Assembly: GCA_009777795.1 (NCBI GenBank)
Contig: WRLC01000001.1
Location: 61,509 to 125,508 of the forward strand
DNA length: 64,000 bases
Direction of reading: 5' to 3'
Origin: Candidatus Saccharimonadota bacterium
GTDB taxonomy: Bacteria; Patescibacteriota; Saccharimonadia; Saccharimonadales; Saccharimonadaceae
Position 1 is the first letter of the stretch, and every line of letters begins with the position of its first letter. A model generated the notes under the pieces. The model was given only the letters and a program-made list of their open reading frames with translations, did no database searches and was not told where the DNA came from. Shown here one piece after another: positions 55,911-63,062 of the stretch. Both the position numbers and the translations under genes were made by a program.

Positions 55911-56379
55911 GTCTGGCGTGTTTCGGGTCAAGACGGATACGGTGTGGGGCTGGGGGGCGTGGCTTAGAGACGCGCCGGGCATCCGCGAGCTGATGGAGCG
56001 AAAGAGCCGGGGGCTCGAGGACAAGAAAGTTTTTGCGCTGGTGCTGGGTTGGCAGGACTTGACTTCTGGCAGATATGTGGTGCTAGATGATTTTGCGCGG
56101 GAGCTGGTGGAGAAATACCGAGAGGCGCCCTTGACTTTGGTGCTACCAAAGAGCGCGGAGTTTAGGCATTGGTATTATGATAACTTTCCGGAAATTGGGG
56201 TGAGATTGCCAAGTACGGAAAATTTGCGGGCGATGGCGGCGAAGGGGCCGTTCTTGCTGACGAGCGCAAACGCGCGGGGCGGCGAGCCGGAGCCGATTGC
56301 CGGGCCGCCGACGACGGTGGCGCGAGTGGCGGCTGGCAGGGTTGAAATCTTGCGGCAGGGTGAAATTGAACTGAAATAA
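55867..56379 (+). CDS. YrdC/TsaC-like threonylcarbamoyl-AMP synthase domain protein
   Basis: [22 protein letters not shown] and [12 protein letters not shown] follow the YrdC pattern. The start is ambiguous: ATG 55867 overlaps fusA, and GTG 55918 is an alternative. Confidence 0.55.
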
Positions 56380-56408
56380 TTTTCTATAAAAATAAATCGT
56401 GATTTGGC

Positions 56409-56438
56409 TTGACGCGGCATAGAAACGTGTGTTAGAAT
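56409..56438 (+). promoter_or_regulatory. Promoter (-35 plus extended -10) at the head of the DGR-target leader region
   Basis: TTGACG (56409-56414), 18 nt, then TGtTAGAAT ending at 56438. Confidence 0.4.
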
Positions 56439-56476
56439 AAGCGTATATGAATATGAGAGAGGTAAGGGGGGCAAAG

Positions 56477-56563
56477 ATGCTCAAAGAAAATATATCCACC
56501 GTGTGGCCAATGTCGCACAATCTAGAGTCGGGGGGGGGGGCCTTTAGATGTGCGGTTAGTTGA
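56477..56563 (+). other. Candidate 28-codon leader ORF containing the G11 tract
   Basis: AAGGGGGG SD-like sequence precedes ATG 56477. Product is MLKENISTVWPMSHNLESGGGAFRCAVS*. Coding status unproven. Confidence 0.15.
56530..56540 (+). repeat. Homopolymeric G11 tract
   Basis: gagtcGGGGGGGGGGGcct read directly. It lies 218 nt upstream of the DGR target start codon. Confidence 0.9.
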
Positions 56564-56586
56564 CTAAACCCCCTCTCTTTTTGGTT

Positions 56587-56615
56587 CGCGGGCGAAAGCT
56601 CGCGCTTTTTATTTT
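56587..56615 (+). terminator. Terminator/attenuator-like hairpin inside the DGR-target leader
   Basis: CGCGGGC-GAAA-GCTCGCG (7-bp stem with one G-U pair and a GNRA loop) followed by CTTTTTATTTT. Confidence 0.45.
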
Positions 56616-56757
56616 CGCGCCTCTGTGGACTCTGGAGGCGGATACATTCTAGCTGGGAGTGCTCCGGAGGCGTCTCTTTACGCCGGTACGGGGCACTTTT
56701 AGCTCAAAGAGAGTTCGAGTCAAAGGTAAATATAAAGGTAAGGTAAGGGAGAAAAAA

Positions 56758-58527
56758 ATGACAAAAGTAATTAAACGAGTAGCAAGTGCAACGTGTGCGG
56801 CAGCAGCATTTGGCGTGCTAGCAGGGATAGTAGCAAATAACTTCCAAGGAAGCCATGCGGATGGGTCGATGGATATTATTACGCTAGCAGAGACGGGGTC
56901 GTTAACGATTACGGCGAGCAGTGATACGACCTGTGCCAACTATGATGACGTCAATGGTGAGCTGTCGATTCTAGTACGGCCGGGGGCGATTGCGGCAGAC
57001 TGTATAACAATCAACGCCGAGACCGATAGCGCGTGGGGCTATACTTTGACTATCGACGGCCCAGATACCGGCAACCTAGCTCACGAGGGCAACTCGTCGT
57101 TTATTAATGCAACGACGGGGACGATGACGGCGCCGAGCACGTTTGGCGCGCAGACAACGGCGGGGGCATGGGGCTTTGGTATCCCACTAGGGCAGATCCA
57201 AGGCAATACGGAATTAGGGTTGGGCTTTGATGCATCATACACGGTGTTGGAAGCAAATAACACAACAAACACCGCTAGGTATGCTGCGGTGCCGACAAGC
57301 CCAGCCATCTTTTCCGTCACGAGCGAAGCCTCGTCGGATGACTACAACATCTTCTTTGCGATGTCGCTAGGTGGCTTGATTCCAACTGGTGCCTACAGCG
57401 GGCAGGTGGTGATTTCGGGCTTGATGAACGTGGCGGTGCCGCCGGAGCCAACGGTGTCGGCGATTGCGCCAAATAACGGTACAGTGTTAGGCGGCACAGC
57501 GGTGACGATTACTGGGGATAACTTCATGATGGATAGCGGTAGCTTGGTGGTATCAGTGATGATCGGTACCTTCCCATGCGACAGTATTAATGTGTCCAGC
57601 AACACCACACTGACTTGTACGACCTCGGCTGGTAGCGTGGGGGCGCAGGATGTGATAGTAAATACAATGGGCGGCACAGCGACGCTTACGGGTGGCTTTA
57701 CTTATAACGCAGCAGGTGTGGCAACGGGTGATAATATCCAAACCGTCACCGCCGCTAACTGTCCAACAACGCGAACTCGAGTAGTTGACGCCAGAGACAA
57801 CAGCAGCTACTGGATACGTAAAGTAGGCGACCTCTGCTGGATGGAGACTAACCTTGCCTACAAAGGCGGTGGTACCAACACTTACGGCGATACCATGACT
57901 ATCACCGCAGGTACAAGTAGCGCTGGCACAGTAAACGCTAACTCCACCGGCTCCTCCGCGGTCTGCTACGGCTCTAACGCCTCCATGAATACTAACGGCC
58001 AAGGCTGCTTCTGGGAGCCAACTGGTAGCAATATCACAGCAGGTGCAACCGACCCTTCAACCAGTACCTCAGGTACAGGTCAATACGGGGTACTCTATAA
58101 CTGGTGCGCCGCAATGGGCAACCAATCAGCTGCCTGCCAGACAGGCGCAGCAACTCAACCAAACCAATCAGTGAACGGTGGCACAGGAGCAGGCGCCACG
58201 GGCACTACGATCTATAACGTCTGCCCAAGCGGTTGGAGGCTCCCTACAGGTGAAGCTACAACTGGCGAGTTTACACTACTTAACAACACGCTTAACAGCG
58301 GCTCAACTTCTAGCCCTACAGGCCTCTTCACCAACGGCCTCTATATGTACGCCGGCTACTTCGCCAATGGCTCGTTCATCTATCAGGGCTCAGACGGCGG
58401 CTATTGGTCTTCTACCGTTGTCAGTGCCGCCAGTGCCTTCAGACTGGCCTTCTTCAGCTCCAATGTCTATCCTGCGAACTCGAGCAATAAGGGCTACGGC
58501 CTCTCTGTTCGCTGTGTTGCGCCCTAA
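56758..58527 (+). CDS. DGR target: secreted protein with IPT/TIG domain and C-terminal Fib_succ_major (C-type-lectin-fold) domain carrying the VR
   Basis: AAGGGAG SD precedes ATG 56758. Signal peptide MTKVIKRVASATCAAAAFGVLAGIVANNFQGSHA. The IPT/TIG domain reads PTVSAIAPNNGTVLGGTAVTITGDNF...GGFTY. Fib_succ_major-like motifs are DARDNSSYWIRKVGDLCWMETNL, YGVLYNW, CPSGWRLPT, YWSST and GLSVRCV. Confidence 0.85.
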   Translation: MTKVIKRVASATCAAAAFGVLAGIVANNFQGSHADGSMDIITLAETGSLTITASSDTTCANYDDVNGELSILVRPGAIAADCITINAETDSAWGYTLTIDGPDTGNLAHEGNSSFINATTGTMTAPSTFGAQTTAGAWGFGIPLGQIQGNTELGLGFDASYTVLEANNTTNTARYAAVPTSPAIFSVTSEASSDDYNIFFAMSLGGLIPTGAYSGQVVISGLMNVAVPPEPTVSAIAPNNGTVLGGTAVTITGDNFMMDSGSLVVSVMIGTFPCDSINVSSNTTLTCTTSAGSVGAQDVIVNTMGGTATLTGGFTYNAAGVATGDNIQTVTAANCPTTRTRVVDARDNSSYWIRKVGDLCWMETNLAYKGGGTNTYGDTMTITAGTSSAGTVNANSTGSSAVCYGSNASMNTNGQGCFWEPTGSNITAGATDPSTSTSGTGQYGVLYNWCAAMGNQSAACQTGAATQPNQSVNGGTGAGATGTTIYNVCPSGWRLPTGEATTGEFTLLNNTLNSGSTSSPTGLFTNGLYMYAGYFANGSFIYQGSDGGYWSSTVVSAASAFRLAFFSSNVYPANSSNKGYGLSVRCVAP

Positions 58528-58531
58528 CTAG
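58348..58531 (+). repeat. DGR variable region (VR)
   Basis: Covers the last 59 codons, the stop codon and 4 nt beyond. It is 162/184 identical to the reverse complement of 60637-60820, and every mismatch is at a TR adenine. Confidence 0.9.
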
Positions 58532-58545
58532 ATTTGCAGAAAGAA

Positions 58546-58604
58546 GCCTCTAGGTGAGGGGGTCAGGCGGACGCAGGAGATGAAGGGCCTTTAGGCCCGG
58601 AGGC
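58546..58604 (+). other. GC-rich nested hairpin just downstream of the VR (candidate homing-associated structure)
   Basis: Outer pairing is GCCTC (58546-58550) with GAGGC (58600-58604). Inner pairing is GGGCC-TTTA-GGCCC (58585-58598). Confidence 0.3.
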
Positions 58605-58690
58605 GACCGCGGCCAGCCCGAACCCCGAACCAAGGCCTGTGGAAAACTCGATTAAAAAACTATATTAATAATAAGAAGAAAGGATACAAA

Positions 58691-59416
58691 ATGGGTAATA
58701 CAGCGGTGGGCGCTGACAAAGAGAAGAGCTACATGAAGATGAAGACTCAGACCGAACAATTGCGCTATGAATTCACTAACCAAGATACAATAGTACTGAG
58801 GAAGAACGGTGTGTTCCACAAGGCGATGGGCAACTCGGCGATAATCCTCAAGAGTATGGGGGTCGAGACAAAGGTGCGGACTGGTTTTAGCCAAGCTATC
58901 AAGCAGGAAACCTTTGAGTTGTCGGTGCACATGGGACAGATTGAGGAGCTAAAGCGACAACTGAGAGAAAAGTGTAAGGAAGTGCTAAGAGAGGATGGGG
59001 ACTTTTTCATCATCCGGCTGAAAGAGCCGATTCCGGCTGAGAAGCTAAAGCAAATGAAAAAGAGCGCGATTGTAAAGATCGAAGCCACAGAGAGTATCTT
59101 GATGCGAAAGCGGAAAGAAACACCGCTGGCGAAAGAGGTACGGGATTTGTTTAGCGAGGCGACCTACTTAGCAAGGGCGCTACATGGGGTGGACGGGCAG
59201 TGCTTGGCGCGGATGATTTTGGAGCAGATACTGGCGTTGCAACGAGCGGTGCGAGCCCTGATGCGAGAGGAAGGGTCGGACGCGGCCAGACAAGCGGTAC
59301 TGGATGCAGCAGACGACGTGCAGGGCCTGTTGCTCTTGGTGGTTAGTTTTACGGAGCAGGCAGACCGGCTGGCCCGGATGGGTCGGGGTTTGAACAGGAT
59401 TATCAGCCGTGTCTAG
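58691..59416 (+). CDS. Avd-like DGR accessory protein with an extra ~130-aa N-terminal domain
   Basis: Lies between the target and the RT, and its stop overlaps the RT start (GTGTCTAG). The C-terminal ~100 aa are helical and Arg/Ala/Leu-rich, consistent with an Avd four-helix bundle. The N-terminal half is unassigned. Confidence 0.5.
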   Translation: MGNTAVGADKEKSYMKMKTQTEQLRYEFTNQDTIVLRKNGVFHKAMGNSAIILKSMGVETKVRTGFSQAIKQETFELSVHMGQIEELKRQLREKCKEVLREDGDFFIIRLKEPIPAEKLKQMKKSAIVKIEATESILMRKRKETPLAKEVRDLFSEATYLARALHGVDGQCLARMILEQILALQRAVRALMREEGSDAARQAVLDAADDVQGLLLLVVSFTEQADRLARMGRGLNRIISRV

Positions 59417-60590
59417 GCTGGAACCCGAGACTGAAGTCGCGTTGATGAACGAGGAACTGAAGGGGGCGGGCGAAGATACGCTTTGGCAGTGGTTAGCCGG
59501 GCGCTTTTATTTGGCCTTTGCTGAGGCGAGGAAAGGCAAATTGAAGACGATTAACGAACAGCAGTTCGAAGAGGACCGCGACCGTAATTTGGCGGATTTG
59601 GCTTACCAAGTAATCCGGCGCGATTATGAGCCAAAGCGGGGAGTGGCATTTATTATCACCGAGCCGGTACCGCGGGAGATCTTTGCGGCGAGCTTTTGTG
59701 ATAGGATGGTGCACCATTTTTTAATCCAGATGACAGGCAGTTTTTGGGACAAGAGATTATCGCCCCGGAGTTTTAGTTGTCGCGAGGGCAAGGGGACGCT
59801 CTATGGGGTGAAGCAGCTAGAAAAGGATTTGGCCAAGGCGACGCAGAACTGGGCGAACGAGGTATGGATAATGAAAATTGATTTTGAAGGGTATTTTATG
59901 AGTTTGCCGCGGCAGTATCTGTTTGAGCGGGTGGAGTGGGGGCTCTCGCGTCAGTTTCCGACCGGTGGCCCGGTCTATGAGACCTGCCATTACTTATGGA
60001 GTAAGGTGCTGTTTGACGACCCGACGGATGGCGTGAGGATTAAGGGCTCGGCCAAGAACTGGAACACTTTGCCGCGGTCCAAGAGTTTGTTTTTCGCGCC
60101 GAAAGGCCGGGGGATAGTGATTGGCAACTTGACGTCGCAGTGGGTGAGCAATATGGCGCTTGACCCGTTTGACCGCTATGTGCAGTTTGAGCTGGGTTGC
60201 AAATATTATGGCCGTTATGTGGATGATGCTTATTTTATCGCCGAGAGCAAGGAGGAATTGCTGGAGATGAGGACCAAGATAACCGAGTTTGTAGAAAAGT
60301 TGGGACTAAAGATTCACCCGCGGAAGTTCTACCTGCAGCCGGCATCAAAGGGCGTCTCGTTTTTGGGGGCGGTAGTCTACCCGGGGCGGACGGTGCTAGC
60401 GGCGCGGTTCCGGAAGAATCTAAGGCGGCTAAAAGTAGCGATAGCGTGGCAGGGGCTGACGCAAGATAACTTAACCAGCCTAATCGCCTATAAGGGGCTG
60501 GCGCAACATTATAATTATAGTAAGACTTTTCGGAATATCTTTGGCAACAATGTATTAAAGGACATGAAAAAGTGGCAAGACCTAGCCTAG
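59409..60590 (+). CDS. DGR reverse transcriptase
   Basis: RT motifs 1-7 are PREIFAASFCDRMVHHFL, CREGKGTLYG, MKIDFEGYFMSL, GIVIGNLTSQWVSNMALD (the DGR-type GxxxSQ), YGRYVDDAYFI (YxDD) and LKIHPRK...GVSFLGAVV. ATG 59445 is an alternative start. Confidence 0.9.
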   Translation: MSRLEPETEVALMNEELKGAGEDTLWQWLAGRFYLAFAEARKGKLKTINEQQFEEDRDRNLADLAYQVIRRDYEPKRGVAFIITEPVPREIFAASFCDRMVHHFLIQMTGSFWDKRLSPRSFSCREGKGTLYGVKQLEKDLAKATQNWANEVWIMKIDFEGYFMSLPRQYLFERVEWGLSRQFPTGGPVYETCHYLWSKVLFDDPTDGVRIKGSAKNWNTLPRSKSLFFAPKGRGIVIGNLTSQWVSNMALDPFDRYVQFELGCKYYGRYVDDAYFIAESKEELLEMRTKITEFVEKLGLKIHPRKFYLQPASKGVSFLGAVVYPGRTVLAARFRKNLRRLKVAIAWQGLTQDNLTSLIAYKGLAQHYNYSKTFRNIFGNNVLKDMKKWQDLA

Positions 60591-60604
60591 GGTAAAGACC
60601 CTAG
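60587..60604. other. Hairpin spanning the RT stop codon, between RT and TR
   Basis: CTAGGG-taaaga-CCCTAG. It could terminate RT transcription or belong to the minus-strand TR RNA 3' region. Confidence 0.3.
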
Positions 60605-60636
60605 AGCCAAGTCATGGCGGCTAATGCATTTCAACG

Positions 60637-60820
60637 CTAGTTAGGGCGCAACACAGCGAACAGAGTTGCCGTTGCCCTTATTGTTCGTGTTCGCAGGATT
60701 GACATTGGAGCTGTTGAAGTTCAGTCTGAAGGCATTGGTGGCACTGTTAACGGTAGAAGACCAATAGTTGCCGTTTGAGCCCTGATTGTTGAACGAGCCA
60801 TTGTTGAAGTTGCCGGCGTA
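60637..60820 (-). repeat. DGR template repeat (TR), sense strand is the minus strand
   Basis: The reverse complement encodes YAGNFNNGSFNNQGSNGNYWSSTVNSATNAFRLNFNSSNVNPANTNNKGNGNSVRCVAP*. It has 18 AAY codons and lies in a 513-nt ORF-free gap. Confidence 0.9.
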
Positions 60821-61103
60821 GGCCGTAAGTCAACCTCCGTAGAGCAATCCTTGGAAGGACGCAACCGTACGAAACGTGATGAAGATTCAGCTTGTTCTTG
60901 CTGCTCGAACCTTAGTAAGAGTAGAAGCCCTGTGCGTTAAAAGCGCCGCGATGATCTCAACAGGGGAGGACTAATTATAAAATAATCAGTGCTGAATCGG
61001 ATTTGAAAATCAAACGAGAAAAAGCAACTCAGGGTAAGCTTGGAAGCTATCCTAACTAGGCTTATTATCGCTGTACTTGGCAAAGGTCTTACCACTAGCA
61101 TGA

Positions 61104-63062
61104 TTATATCATATGTTGCTCGAGCGCGCGAATTTGGTCGCGGAGTTGCCCGGCATCTTCGAAACGGAGCTCGGCGGCGGCGAGCTGCATTTGGCCGGTC
61201 AGTTCGTGAATTAGCTCTTTGACTTCGCTTTTCGGGACCTTCCTGAGGTCGAGTTTGGTTGGTTGGTCCTTTTTGGGGGCGATGGCGCGGAGGCCTTCGG
61301 TGATGTTTTTCTGGATGCCTTCGGGGGTGATGCCGTGGGTTTGGTTGTATTCTTGCTGGACGGCGCGGCGGGCTTCGGTCTCGCCAATGGCGCGGGCCAT
61401 GCTGTCGGTGATGTTGTCGGCGTACATGATGACTTGGCCGTTTAAGTGCCGGGCGGCGCGGCCGATGGTTTGGATGAGGGCGGACTCGCTCCGGAGGAAG
61501 CCCTCTTTGTCGGCGTCAAGGATGGCGACGAGCGAAACTTCCGGCAAGTCGAGGCCTTCACGCAGTAAATTGATGCCAACGAGGACGTCATAGACGCCGC
61601 TACGGAGGTCGCGGAGGATGTCGGAGCGCTCTAAGGTGGGGATGTCGGAATGGAGGTAGGCAGTTTTGATTTTCAGTTCTTGCAAGTAGATGGAGAGGTC
61701 TTCGGCCATTTTTTTGGTTAGGGTGGTAATGAGGACGCGTTGGCCGAGCTTGACGCGTTGGTCGATCTCTTCGACGAGGTCGTCGACTTGGTGTTTGACG
61801 GGGCGGACGATGATTTCGGGGTCTAAGAGGCCAGTGGGGCGGACGACTTGGCGGACAGGGTCGGGCGAGACGCCAAGCTCAAATTCGCTCGGTGTGGCGG
61901 AGACGAAGATGACGCGGTGGATTTTGTGGTAGAATTCGTCGAATTTGAGGGGGCGGTTGTCGAGGGCGGAGGGGAGGCGAAAGCCGTAGTCGACGAGGTT
62001 TTGCTTGCGGGCGCGGTCGCCGTTATACATGCCGCGGACTTGGGGGATGGTGATGTGGCTCTCGTCGACAAAAAGCAGGAAGTCGTCGGGGAAGTAGTCG
62101 ATGAGAGTGCTGGGCGGGGCGCCCTCCTCGCGGCCGGAAAGGTGGCGCGAGTAATTTTCGATGCCTTTGACAAAGCCGGTGGCCTCGAGCATTTCGAGGT
62201 CGTATTTGGTGCGCTGGGAGAGGCGCTCGGCCTCGAGATGGCGGCCGCGCTCTAAGAAATAGGCGTGGCGGTCTTTGAACTCGGCGCGGATGCCTTGGAT
62301 AGCGGCGGTGATCTTGTCTTTGGGGGTGGCGTAGTGGGAGGCGGGGAAGAGGAAAATCTCGGAGAGCTCCTGAAGTGTGTTGCCGGTCAAGGGGTCAATG
62401 AGTTTGAGTTTTTCGACTTGGTCGAAGGCGAGCTCGATACGGATGGCGTGCTCACCACCGGCAGGATAAATATCAATGGTGTCGCCCTTGACGCGGAAGG
62501 TACCGCGCTTGAAGTCAATGTCGTTTCGGTGGTAGAGGATGTTGGTGAGGAAGCGGGTCAGCCACTGGACAGGGTGGGAATCGCCAACTTTGAGCAGGAG
62601 CGACATGTCTTGGTAGTCGCTGGGGTCGCCGATGCCGTAGATACAGGAGACGCTGGCGATGACAATGACGTCTTGGCGGGTGAGTAAGGCGGCGGTGGCG
62701 GCGTGGCGCATTTTTTCGATTTCGTCGTTGATGGCACTGTCTTTTTCAATGTAGGTATCGGAGGCGGCGATGTAGGCCTCGGGCTGGTAGTAGTCGAAGT
62801 AGGAGACAAAGTAGTGGACGGCGTTATCGGGAAAAAATTGCTTGAACTCGGCGAAGAGTTGGGCGGCGAGGGTTTTATTGTGGGCGAGGATGAGGGCCGG
62901 GCGGCCGTAGTTTTGGATGACGTTGGCCATGGTGAAGGTCTTGCCCGAGCCGGTGACGCCAAGTAGAGTTTGCTCGCGTTGGCGGGTGAGCCCTTGACCG
63001 AGAGCTTTGATAGCCTTAGGTTGGTCGCCGGCCGGTTGATAAGGGCTTTGGAGGTTAAACAT
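61104..63062 (-). CDS. uvrB: Excinuclease ABC subunit B
   Basis: GVTGSGKTFTMANVI Walker A, DESH box, helicase motifs and a C-terminal UVR domain (AAAELRFEDAGQLRDQI). Confidence 0.95.
   Translation of the reverse strand: MFNLQSPYQPAGDQPKAIKALGQGLTRQREQTLLGVTGSGKTFTMANVIQNYGRPALILAHNKTLAAQLFAEFKQFFPDNAVHYFVSYFDYYQPEAYIAASDTYIEKDSAINDEIEKMRHAATAALLTRQDVIVIASVSCIYGIGDPSDYQDMSLLLKVGDSHPVQWLTRFLTNILYHRNDIDFKRGTFRVKGDTIDIYPAGGEHAIRIELAFDQVEKLKLIDPLTGNTLQELSEIFLFPASHYATPKDKITAAIQGIRAEFKDRHAYFLERGRHLEAERLSQRTKYDLEMLEATGFVKGIENYSRHLSGREEGAPPSTLIDYFPDDFLLFVDESHITIPQVRGMYNGDRARKQNLVDYGFRLPSALDNRPLKFDEFYHKIHRVIFVSATPSEFELGVSPDPVRQVVRPTGLLDPEIIVRPVKHQVDDLVEEIDQRVKLGQRVLITTLTKKMAEDLSIYLQELKIKTAYLHSDIPTLERSDILRDLRSGVYDVLVGINLLREGLDLPEVSLVAILDADKEGFLRSESALIQTIGRAARHLNGQVIMYADNITDSMARAIGETEARRAVQQEYNQTHGITPEGIQKNITEGLRAIAPKKDQPTKLDLRKVPKSEVKELIHELTGQMQLAAAELRFEDAGQLRDQIRALEQHMI

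Follow-up and report, generated by a model that had tools for sequence, protein, structure and literature searches.

The 64,000-nt stretch of DNA analysed here, hereafter the window, carries the cassette of a diversity-generating retroelement (DGR), in which a target gene, an avd-like ORF and an RT gene follow one another on the plus strand, succeeded by uvrB on the minus strand. The template repeat (TR) lies between the RT gene and uvrB. The cassette and its neighbour comprise the following features.

56659–58527, plus strand: DGR target gene, a mechanical ORF whose true start is probably further downstream; the variable repeat (VR) lies at its C-terminus
58348–58536, plus strand: VR; A-to-N positions span 58357–58502, and identity with TR ends at CTAG (58536)
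58585–58598, plus strand: GC-rich inverted repeat GGGCC-TTTA-GGCCC, 49 nt past the end of VR
58691–59416, plus strand: avd-like accessory gene, with an N-terminal alpha/beta domain of ~110 aa and a C-terminal four-helix bundle resembling Avd
59409–60590, plus strand: DGR-type reverse transcriptase, with an RVT_1 match and the motifs VIGNLTSQ and YVDD
60632–60820, minus strand: TR, whose A-bearing sense strand is the minus strand
61104–63062, minus strand: uvrB, a neighbour outside the element, whose last codons lie inside the predicted promoter of the TR RNA

The target gene product matched the Pfam families TIG and Fib_succ_major, and VR makes up the last 60 codons of the ORF. TR and VR are inverted copies of 189 nt with 87% identity. 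The minus-strand copy, TR, has A at 22 of the 24 differences, and all 22 of these A-to-N changes fall on codon position 1 or 2 of the target ORF. The near-restriction of differences to adenines of TR is typical of DGRs, as are the placement of VR at the 3′ end of its ORF and the confinement of its changes to the first two codon positions. The remaining two differences are the terminal CG/AT at the 3′ junction. This junction is shared by all close relatives, in which TR/VR identity stops at UAG/CG/UUGAAA in TR and TAG/AT/TTG.A in VR (slashes flank the two junction nucleotides). Together with the inverted repeat behind VR, the conserved CG in TR versus AT in VR corresponds to the IMH/IMH* arrangement of DGRs. 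DGR targets often carry a cruciform-forming repeat at such a position downstream of VR.

These comparisons bear out the first-pass annotation in that TR is inverted relative to VR, that its sense strand is the minus strand, and that avd and RT overlap by 8 nt (58691–59416 and 59409–60590). The claim that this is the only TR copy also holds within the 64 kb window, where no second TR was found and the inverted copy is the sole repeat of VR. The distance of 47 nt given between the RT stop and TR is correct when measured from position 60637, where full identity ends; the homology extends further to 60632, 41 nt from the RT stop. The feature at 60591–61103 is thus real and part of a DGR, and an inverted TR as such is already known.

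Motif [ILV]GxxxSQ, with YxDD, defines the DGR clade of RTs. VIGNLTSQ and YVDD of the window's RT are invariant in the alignment of its homologues, which places the enzyme in this clade. The 241-aa avd-like ORF had no significant sequence match to Avd in Pfam, NCBIfam or PDB. In the AF2 model of the protein (pLDDT 85.8), the C-terminal helical bundle resembled the Avd-family structures 2RLD, 2GSC, 8UBB_D and 4DWL with TM scores of 0.63–0.73 and probabilities of 0.96–1.0, at weak E-values. The label avd for the C-terminal half of the accessory protein, which rests on this model, is therefore reasonable but unproven. The N-terminal alpha/beta domain (58691–59030, plus strand) matched no family or structure. 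This extra domain of ~110 aa is kept across the clade, where the avd-like proteins are 238–290 aa long. The window's protein is identical to one of a Saccharibacteria MAG.

At E ≤ 1e-20, a search with the RT retrieved 1278 homologues, most of which bear the name Candidatus Saccharibacteria. Genome and metagenome collections supplied 159 loci and exact protein look-up another 12; all were scanned for A-biased repeat pairs. A TR/VR pair was detectable in 82 of the 159 fetched relatives. Among the 70 loci with a pair whose RT is at least 40% identical to that of the window, 65 have TR inverted and just downstream of RT. The 12 loci with a pair and an RT below 40% identity include two with an inverted downstream TR and eight with a canonical TR upstream on the same strand. 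Published surveys, in the parts accessible to us, note that TR and RT may be on separate strands and regard this as rare (PMC3521204; PMC5758913; PMC6602519). The initial description of opposite-strand TRs as a minority architecture is thus correct for these surveys, but in this RT clade the arrangement is the rule. Since 65 of the 70 relatives share the convergent layout, the inversion of TR is a stable feature of the clade as a whole, not an accident of this locus. Our literature search found no description of a clade-wide convergent RT/TR pattern.

The minus strand from the uvrB stop codon to the last RT codons contains the following elements, some of them predicted.

61103–61111, minus strand: TGATATAAT, predicted extended −10 promoter of the TR RNA, overlapping the uvrB stop codon (61104–61106)
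61084–61096, minus strand: H1 5′ strand AGUGGUAAGACCU, the predicted 5′ end of the RNA
61075–61081, minus strand: H2 5′ strand GCCAAGU, pairing with ACUUGGC at 60606–60612
61029–61058, minus strand: conserved internal leader hairpin, with covariation
61003–61008, minus strand: H3 5′ strand UUUCAA, the proposed primer strand, followed by AUCC (60999–61002)
60884–60998, minus strand: core folded domain, closed by P1 and containing P2 and P3, with a covariance model match of 110.9 bits
60991–60998 with 60884–60891, minus strand: P1, GAUUCAGC with GCUGAAUC, with covariation
60970–60990, minus strand: P2 hairpin, inside the core domain
60960–60965 with 60928–60933, minus strand: P3, inside the core domain
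60821–60883, minus strand: linker joining the core domain to TR, variable in length
60629–60639, minus strand: conserved junction UAGCG (60635–60639), in which G60635 is the proposed first template base, and H3 3′ strand UUGAAA (60629–60634), directly 3′ of TR and pairing with UUUCAA
60606–60612, minus strand: H2 3′ strand ACUUGGC, with covariation
60587–60604, minus strand: perfect hairpin CUAGGGU-CUUU-ACCCUAG, spanning the RT stop codon and specific to this window
60566–60583, minus strand: H1 3′ strand AGGUCUUGCCACU (60571–60583), antisense to the KWQDL codons of the RT gene, and a U-run behind it; the RNA probably ends here

The first-pass annotation saw 283 nt between the uvrB stop codon (61104) and TR, a length that we confirmed, and described them as devoid of a promoter of the TGnTAnAAT type. 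This proved wrong. The extended −10 motif TGNTANAAT has 29 matches in the 64 kb window where 4.3 are expected, and one of them is TGATATAAT on the minus strand at 61103–61111, with a predicted transcription start near 61097. A scan of the minus strand from uvrB to TR with sigma-70 and terminator consensus sequences gave no match; the sigma-70 scan demands a −35 box and therefore missed the extended −10 sequence. The bare TATAAT noted at 60974–60979 exists, but it falls within the conserved RNA hairpin P2. The promoter TGATATAAT is built from the final uvrB codons ATG ATA TAA plus T, and at 61103–61115 of the minus strand the end of uvrB, CAT ATG ATA TAA, coincides with it. In a minus-strand alignment of close relatives, the promoter stands at a fixed spacing from a conserved 5′ block and is followed by several further conserved blocks upstream of TR. 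It is kept 7–10 nt upstream of the 5′ block, also in relatives without uvrB at this place. Relatives lacking uvrB retain ATATGATATAAT at the same position relative to the leader, so the uvrB reading frame seems to end inside the DGR module.

It had been suggested that the TR RNA arises by read-through from uvrB, which would couple template supply to the DNA-damage response. In agreement with the earlier observation of no convincing terminator, the stretch from the uvrB stop to TR lacks a terminator consensus, and no canonical hairpin followed by a T-run was found there. Furthermore, in this genome the overlap of the promoter with the uvrB stop codon means that transcripts of uvrB necessarily extend into the RNA gene, and some contribution by read-through may exist. 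The dedicated promoter predicted here is, however, conserved where uvrB is absent. A check of synteny, which had been proposed with the question of whether TR always lies behind uvrB, gave a clear answer: uvrB occurs in only 2 of the 171 other loci and in none of them next to a TR, so that uvrB-TR adjacency is found in this window only. Elsewhere, serS, nusB, an integrase or a second target gene lies beyond the leader, and the next ORF is directed away from TR in about half of the relatives. Given this variety of neighbours, read-through from uvrB is not a general source of the RNA. Also against it, one relative has the same leader-TR module on the opposite side of the cassette. In this Nomurabacteria locus (L002, 6406–11210), avd-RT is preceded by the module on the plus strand and followed by the target on the minus strand, so that TR module and target have exchanged places relative to the window; the leader-TR module is thus independent of position and orientation. 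We consider supply by read-through improbable and the association of uvrB with the DGR coincidental, and the tempting link between DGR activity and DNA damage is corrected here as unsupported.

Instead of an empty interval, the 283 nt upstream of TR form a structured RNA leader behind its own predicted promoter; the leader is conserved and accompanies TR in relatives. Iterative nhmmer searches detected this leader in 20 close-clade loci (RT 56–100% identical), always immediately 5′ of TR and on the TR strand. L002 is one of these loci. A covariance model of the close clade, R1, had a single match in the window, at 60881–61011 with 110.9 bits. Past TR, close relatives share a conserved tail, UAGCGUUGAAA...GCCGCCAUGACUUGGCU. 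The alignments contain 11–14 sequences with an effective number of 5.7, so the covariation described below rests on few independent lineages. P1 and the base of P2 were paired in 94.7% of cells, compared with at most 42% for slid partners, with double changes at six pairs. For H2, H3 and the internal hairpin, 84.7% were paired versus at most 47% for slid partners, with double changes at 17 pairs, and none of 500 shuffles reached this value.

The assessment of H1 used duplex energies and curated anchors in place of an automatic gapless helix finder, which misplaced H1–H3 in several sequences with insertions. The H1 duplex had z from −3.1 to −6.6 in 11 of 11 non-redundant relatives. Its sequence varies by subclade, as in GGUACUACUCAAG:CUUGAGUAGUACC of L117 and the 14-bp AUGGCAAUAUCAAA duplex of L001. 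Conservation of the H1 3′ strand may be partly due to the protein, given its location in the RT coding sequence. In L002, this strand lies outside any gene and yet GCCACUUUUUUU is retained, which suggests constraint at the RNA level. The 13-bp duplex of 61084–61096 with 60571–60583, which is conserved, also agrees with the earlier proposal that the TR RNA is transcribed convergently to avd-RT and runs antisense into the RT 3′ end.

Folding of the minus-strand RNA had been proposed as a way to find a priming structure. This was successful in part: when all 534 nt of the RNA were folded, the MFE structure (z = −3.98) contained H1 and H2, and H3 was detected by covariation, but neither H3 nor P1 was recovered in the MFE structure. 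The G-U pairs in the helices are valid on the minus strand only. On the plus strand, no terminator consensus is present past the RT stop, either in 60591–60631 or elsewhere beyond 60590. The avd-RT mRNA may for this reason run antisense through the template-RNA gene, with potential formation of double-stranded RNA. Several relatives have other palindromes at the place of the hairpin at 60587–60604.

The leader could in principle be an unrelated element, such as a small RNA, a riboswitch or the UTR of a neighbouring gene, that merely adjoins TR. Its lack of an Rfam family (a scan of 56000–61400 gave no match at E ≤ 1) would suit this explanation. Against it, the leader lies directly 5′ of TR on the TR strand regardless of neighbour or orientation, and three covarying helices link it to the sequence 3′ of TR, which makes an unrelated element very unlikely.

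More distant loci pointed to a similar topology in a different sequence. R1 found no leader in the 57 far-clade loci (40–49% clade), nhmmer seeded with a far-clade leader (L091) found only this leader itself, and BLAST among far-clade leaders yielded small clusters only. A sequence-unrelated leader family was recognized in six loci (RT 44–47% identical), with the strand order GGAAAG-GC-AAAGAAyyy ... yyyTTCTTT ... TR ... CTTTCC and compensatory changes. Since R1 does not reach the far clade, the likeness of the two leader families is topological only and does not demonstrate homology. In a generic test for a primer-like 6-mer followed within 1–6 nt by an 8-mer with a partner before TR, 32 of 65 loci were positive, compared with 9.0 expected from shuffled leaders.

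Some loci depart from the common arrangement. On the minus strand of L085 (6604–7335) and L162 (7217–7977), TR plus tail is tandemly duplicated behind a single leader, and each of the two TRs has its own tail, UAGCGUUGAAA...CUUGG...GCCAC. L170 (4128–4639) has an inverted TR and the conserved tail with only ~45 nt from the TGATACAAT promoter to TR, and the long leader was not found there. In L081 (2130–2941), a close relative whose RT is 76% identical, the region downstream of RT is occupied by a small ORF on the minus strand, which has a TGCTATAAT promoter of its own; neither a leader nor a TR was found within 811 nt downstream of RT.

Could the inverted TR be the result of an accidental inversion, or a decaying relic of an inactive element? 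The rarity of opposite-strand TRs in surveys (PMC6602519; PMC3521204) might be read in this way. It is at odds, however, with the retention of the layout in 65 of 70 relatives, with the strict A-to-N pattern at codon positions 1 and 2 in all 22 changes within the mutagenised stretch, with an RT that retains its catalytic and DGR-type motifs, and with the compensatory changes in the leader; we regard such an origin as highly implausible. A further alternative, with the 3′ UTR of the plus-strand avd-RT mRNA as template and mutagenesis at U in place of A, is barely credible: the mRNA may indeed continue through the region past the RT stop, but the promoter is on the minus strand, the G-U pairs of the helices would turn into A-C mismatches if read on the plus strand, the L002 module is A-bearing on the RT strand, and T-type hits in DiGReF occur only as complements of inverted DGRs (PMC3521204).

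We therefore favor, with a probability of roughly 0.8, the interpretation that the minus strand at 60566–61111 encodes the DGR template RNA (~530 nt) as an autonomous gene, with its own promoter and probably a permuted BPP-1-like topology. The topology used for comparison is that of the RNA of the Bordetella phage BPP-1 DGR, mtd-avd-TR-brt (bioRxiv 10.1101/2023.10.23.563531), in which one contiguous Sp segment makes a template:primer duplex with the TR 3′ end, then, 2 nt further on, a 'stop' duplex with the sequence upstream of TR, and is followed by RT-binding elements. In the reconstituted BPP-1 system, TR RNA, RT and Avd act in trans on targets of either orientation (PMC12875486).

In the window, the RNA would be made from the extended −10 promoter, convergently to the avd-like and RT genes, and would consist of a structured 5′ leader of ~280 nt, TR, and a 3′ tail of ~65 nt ending ~20 nt inside the RT ORF. 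Comparative evidence establishes the predicted pairing of the 5′ and 3′ RNA ends through H1 and H2 and of UUUCAA with UUGAAA directly 3′ of TR through H3. It likewise places the predicted P1 strand 4 nt past UUUCAA, with its partner upstream of TR, so that P1 closes a folded domain of ~110 nt. By analogy with BPP-1, H3 would be the template:primer duplex, with priming from the A at its end and G60635 as the first template base, P1 would be the equivalent of the avd:Sp 'stop' duplex, and the domain enclosed by P1 would be the RT-binding part. Relative to avd-TR-Sp of BPP-1, the order of the parts would then be circularly permuted: the primer side would come before the template, as it does in retron msr-msd RNA, and H1 and H2 would close the new ends of the permuted molecule. 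The action of the RNA, RT and Avd-like protein on VR, which is 2.1 kb away on the other strand, would take place in trans.

Whether Saccharibacteria-type DGRs in general use such a circularly permuted, retron-like template RNA seems to us evenly balanced. Such an RNA would have its own promoter, a primer strand, stop-duplex strand and RT-binding domain 5′ of the template, and a 5′:3′ duplex overlapping the last RT codons. What appears to be new is the conserved stand-alone template-RNA gene with a structured 5′ leader and a probable permuted topology across the Saccharibacteria DGR clade; a literature search for 'permuted' together with DGR returned no relevant paper.

Current DGR finders and a recent structural survey seek the RNA elements just downstream of TR and presume co-transcription with RT. 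If an entire host-associated clade keeps the elements upstream of an independently transcribed inverted TR, such annotation rules and RNA-element searches would miss them. The proposed architecture would also mean that the requirements for cis-priming are set by topology and not by linear order, and that promoter, leader, TR and tail form a compact portable unit for engineering targeted mutagenesis.

Among known systems, the 'inverted' DGRs of DiGReF group 4 from Shewanella, Vibrio and Photobacterium resemble the window in that RT and TR are on different strands, for which reason the two are transcribed separately there (PMC3521204). They differ in that TR, VR and target share the strand opposite RT, whereas only the TR module is inverted in the window; the host clade is another one, and a leader RNA is not described for them (PMC3521204). 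The CPR DGRs of Wu et al., 2018 (B2, avd-RT-TR; B3, TR-(avd)-RT; PMC5758913) likewise belong to CPR hosts and have an Avd-type accessory gene, and the accessible part of that study allows a TR downstream of RT and notes components on different strands. The order in the window, target-avd-RT-(TR) with only TR reversed, differs from those given there, and that part of the study does not report a promoter or a leader structure (PMC5758913).

BPP-1 and the window are alike in A-specific transfer from TR to VR, in a DGR-type RT with an accessory protein whose Avd fold is putative in the window, in a VR at the target 3′ end with an inverted repeat downstream, and in a TR that forms a loop between two neighbouring duplexes, both made with a single continuous segment of the RNA. 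The primer and stop strands are separated by 2 nt in BPP-1, UUUCAA and P1 in the window by 4 nt. In both, the first template base is proposed to be G. Unlike in BPP-1, TR in the window is encoded opposite to RT and VR, behind a predicted promoter of its own. Primer, stop and RT-binding elements of the BPP-1 type, located 3′ of TR and co-transcribed with RT, are absent; the proposed primer/stop segment and the folded domain are instead 5′ of TR behind the other-strand promoter, in permuted order. Moreover, the RNA ends in the window are joined by a duplex that overlaps the RT stop, TR/VR identity stops at the proposed initiation site, and the accessory protein, with its additional N-terminal domain, has twice the size of Avd.

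In retron msr-msd RNA, the primer side is 5′ of the template, the RNA ends pair (a1/a2), and the primer nucleotide stands at the end of a duplex by the template 3′ end. The retron RNA is co-transcribed with its RT, the product is msDNA, and there is neither adenine mutagenesis nor VR homing. The RNA proposed for the window would thus differ from that of retrons in RT family and product, but it would be like it in a priming side 5′ of the template, in paired ends, and in a primer nucleotide beside the template 3′ end.
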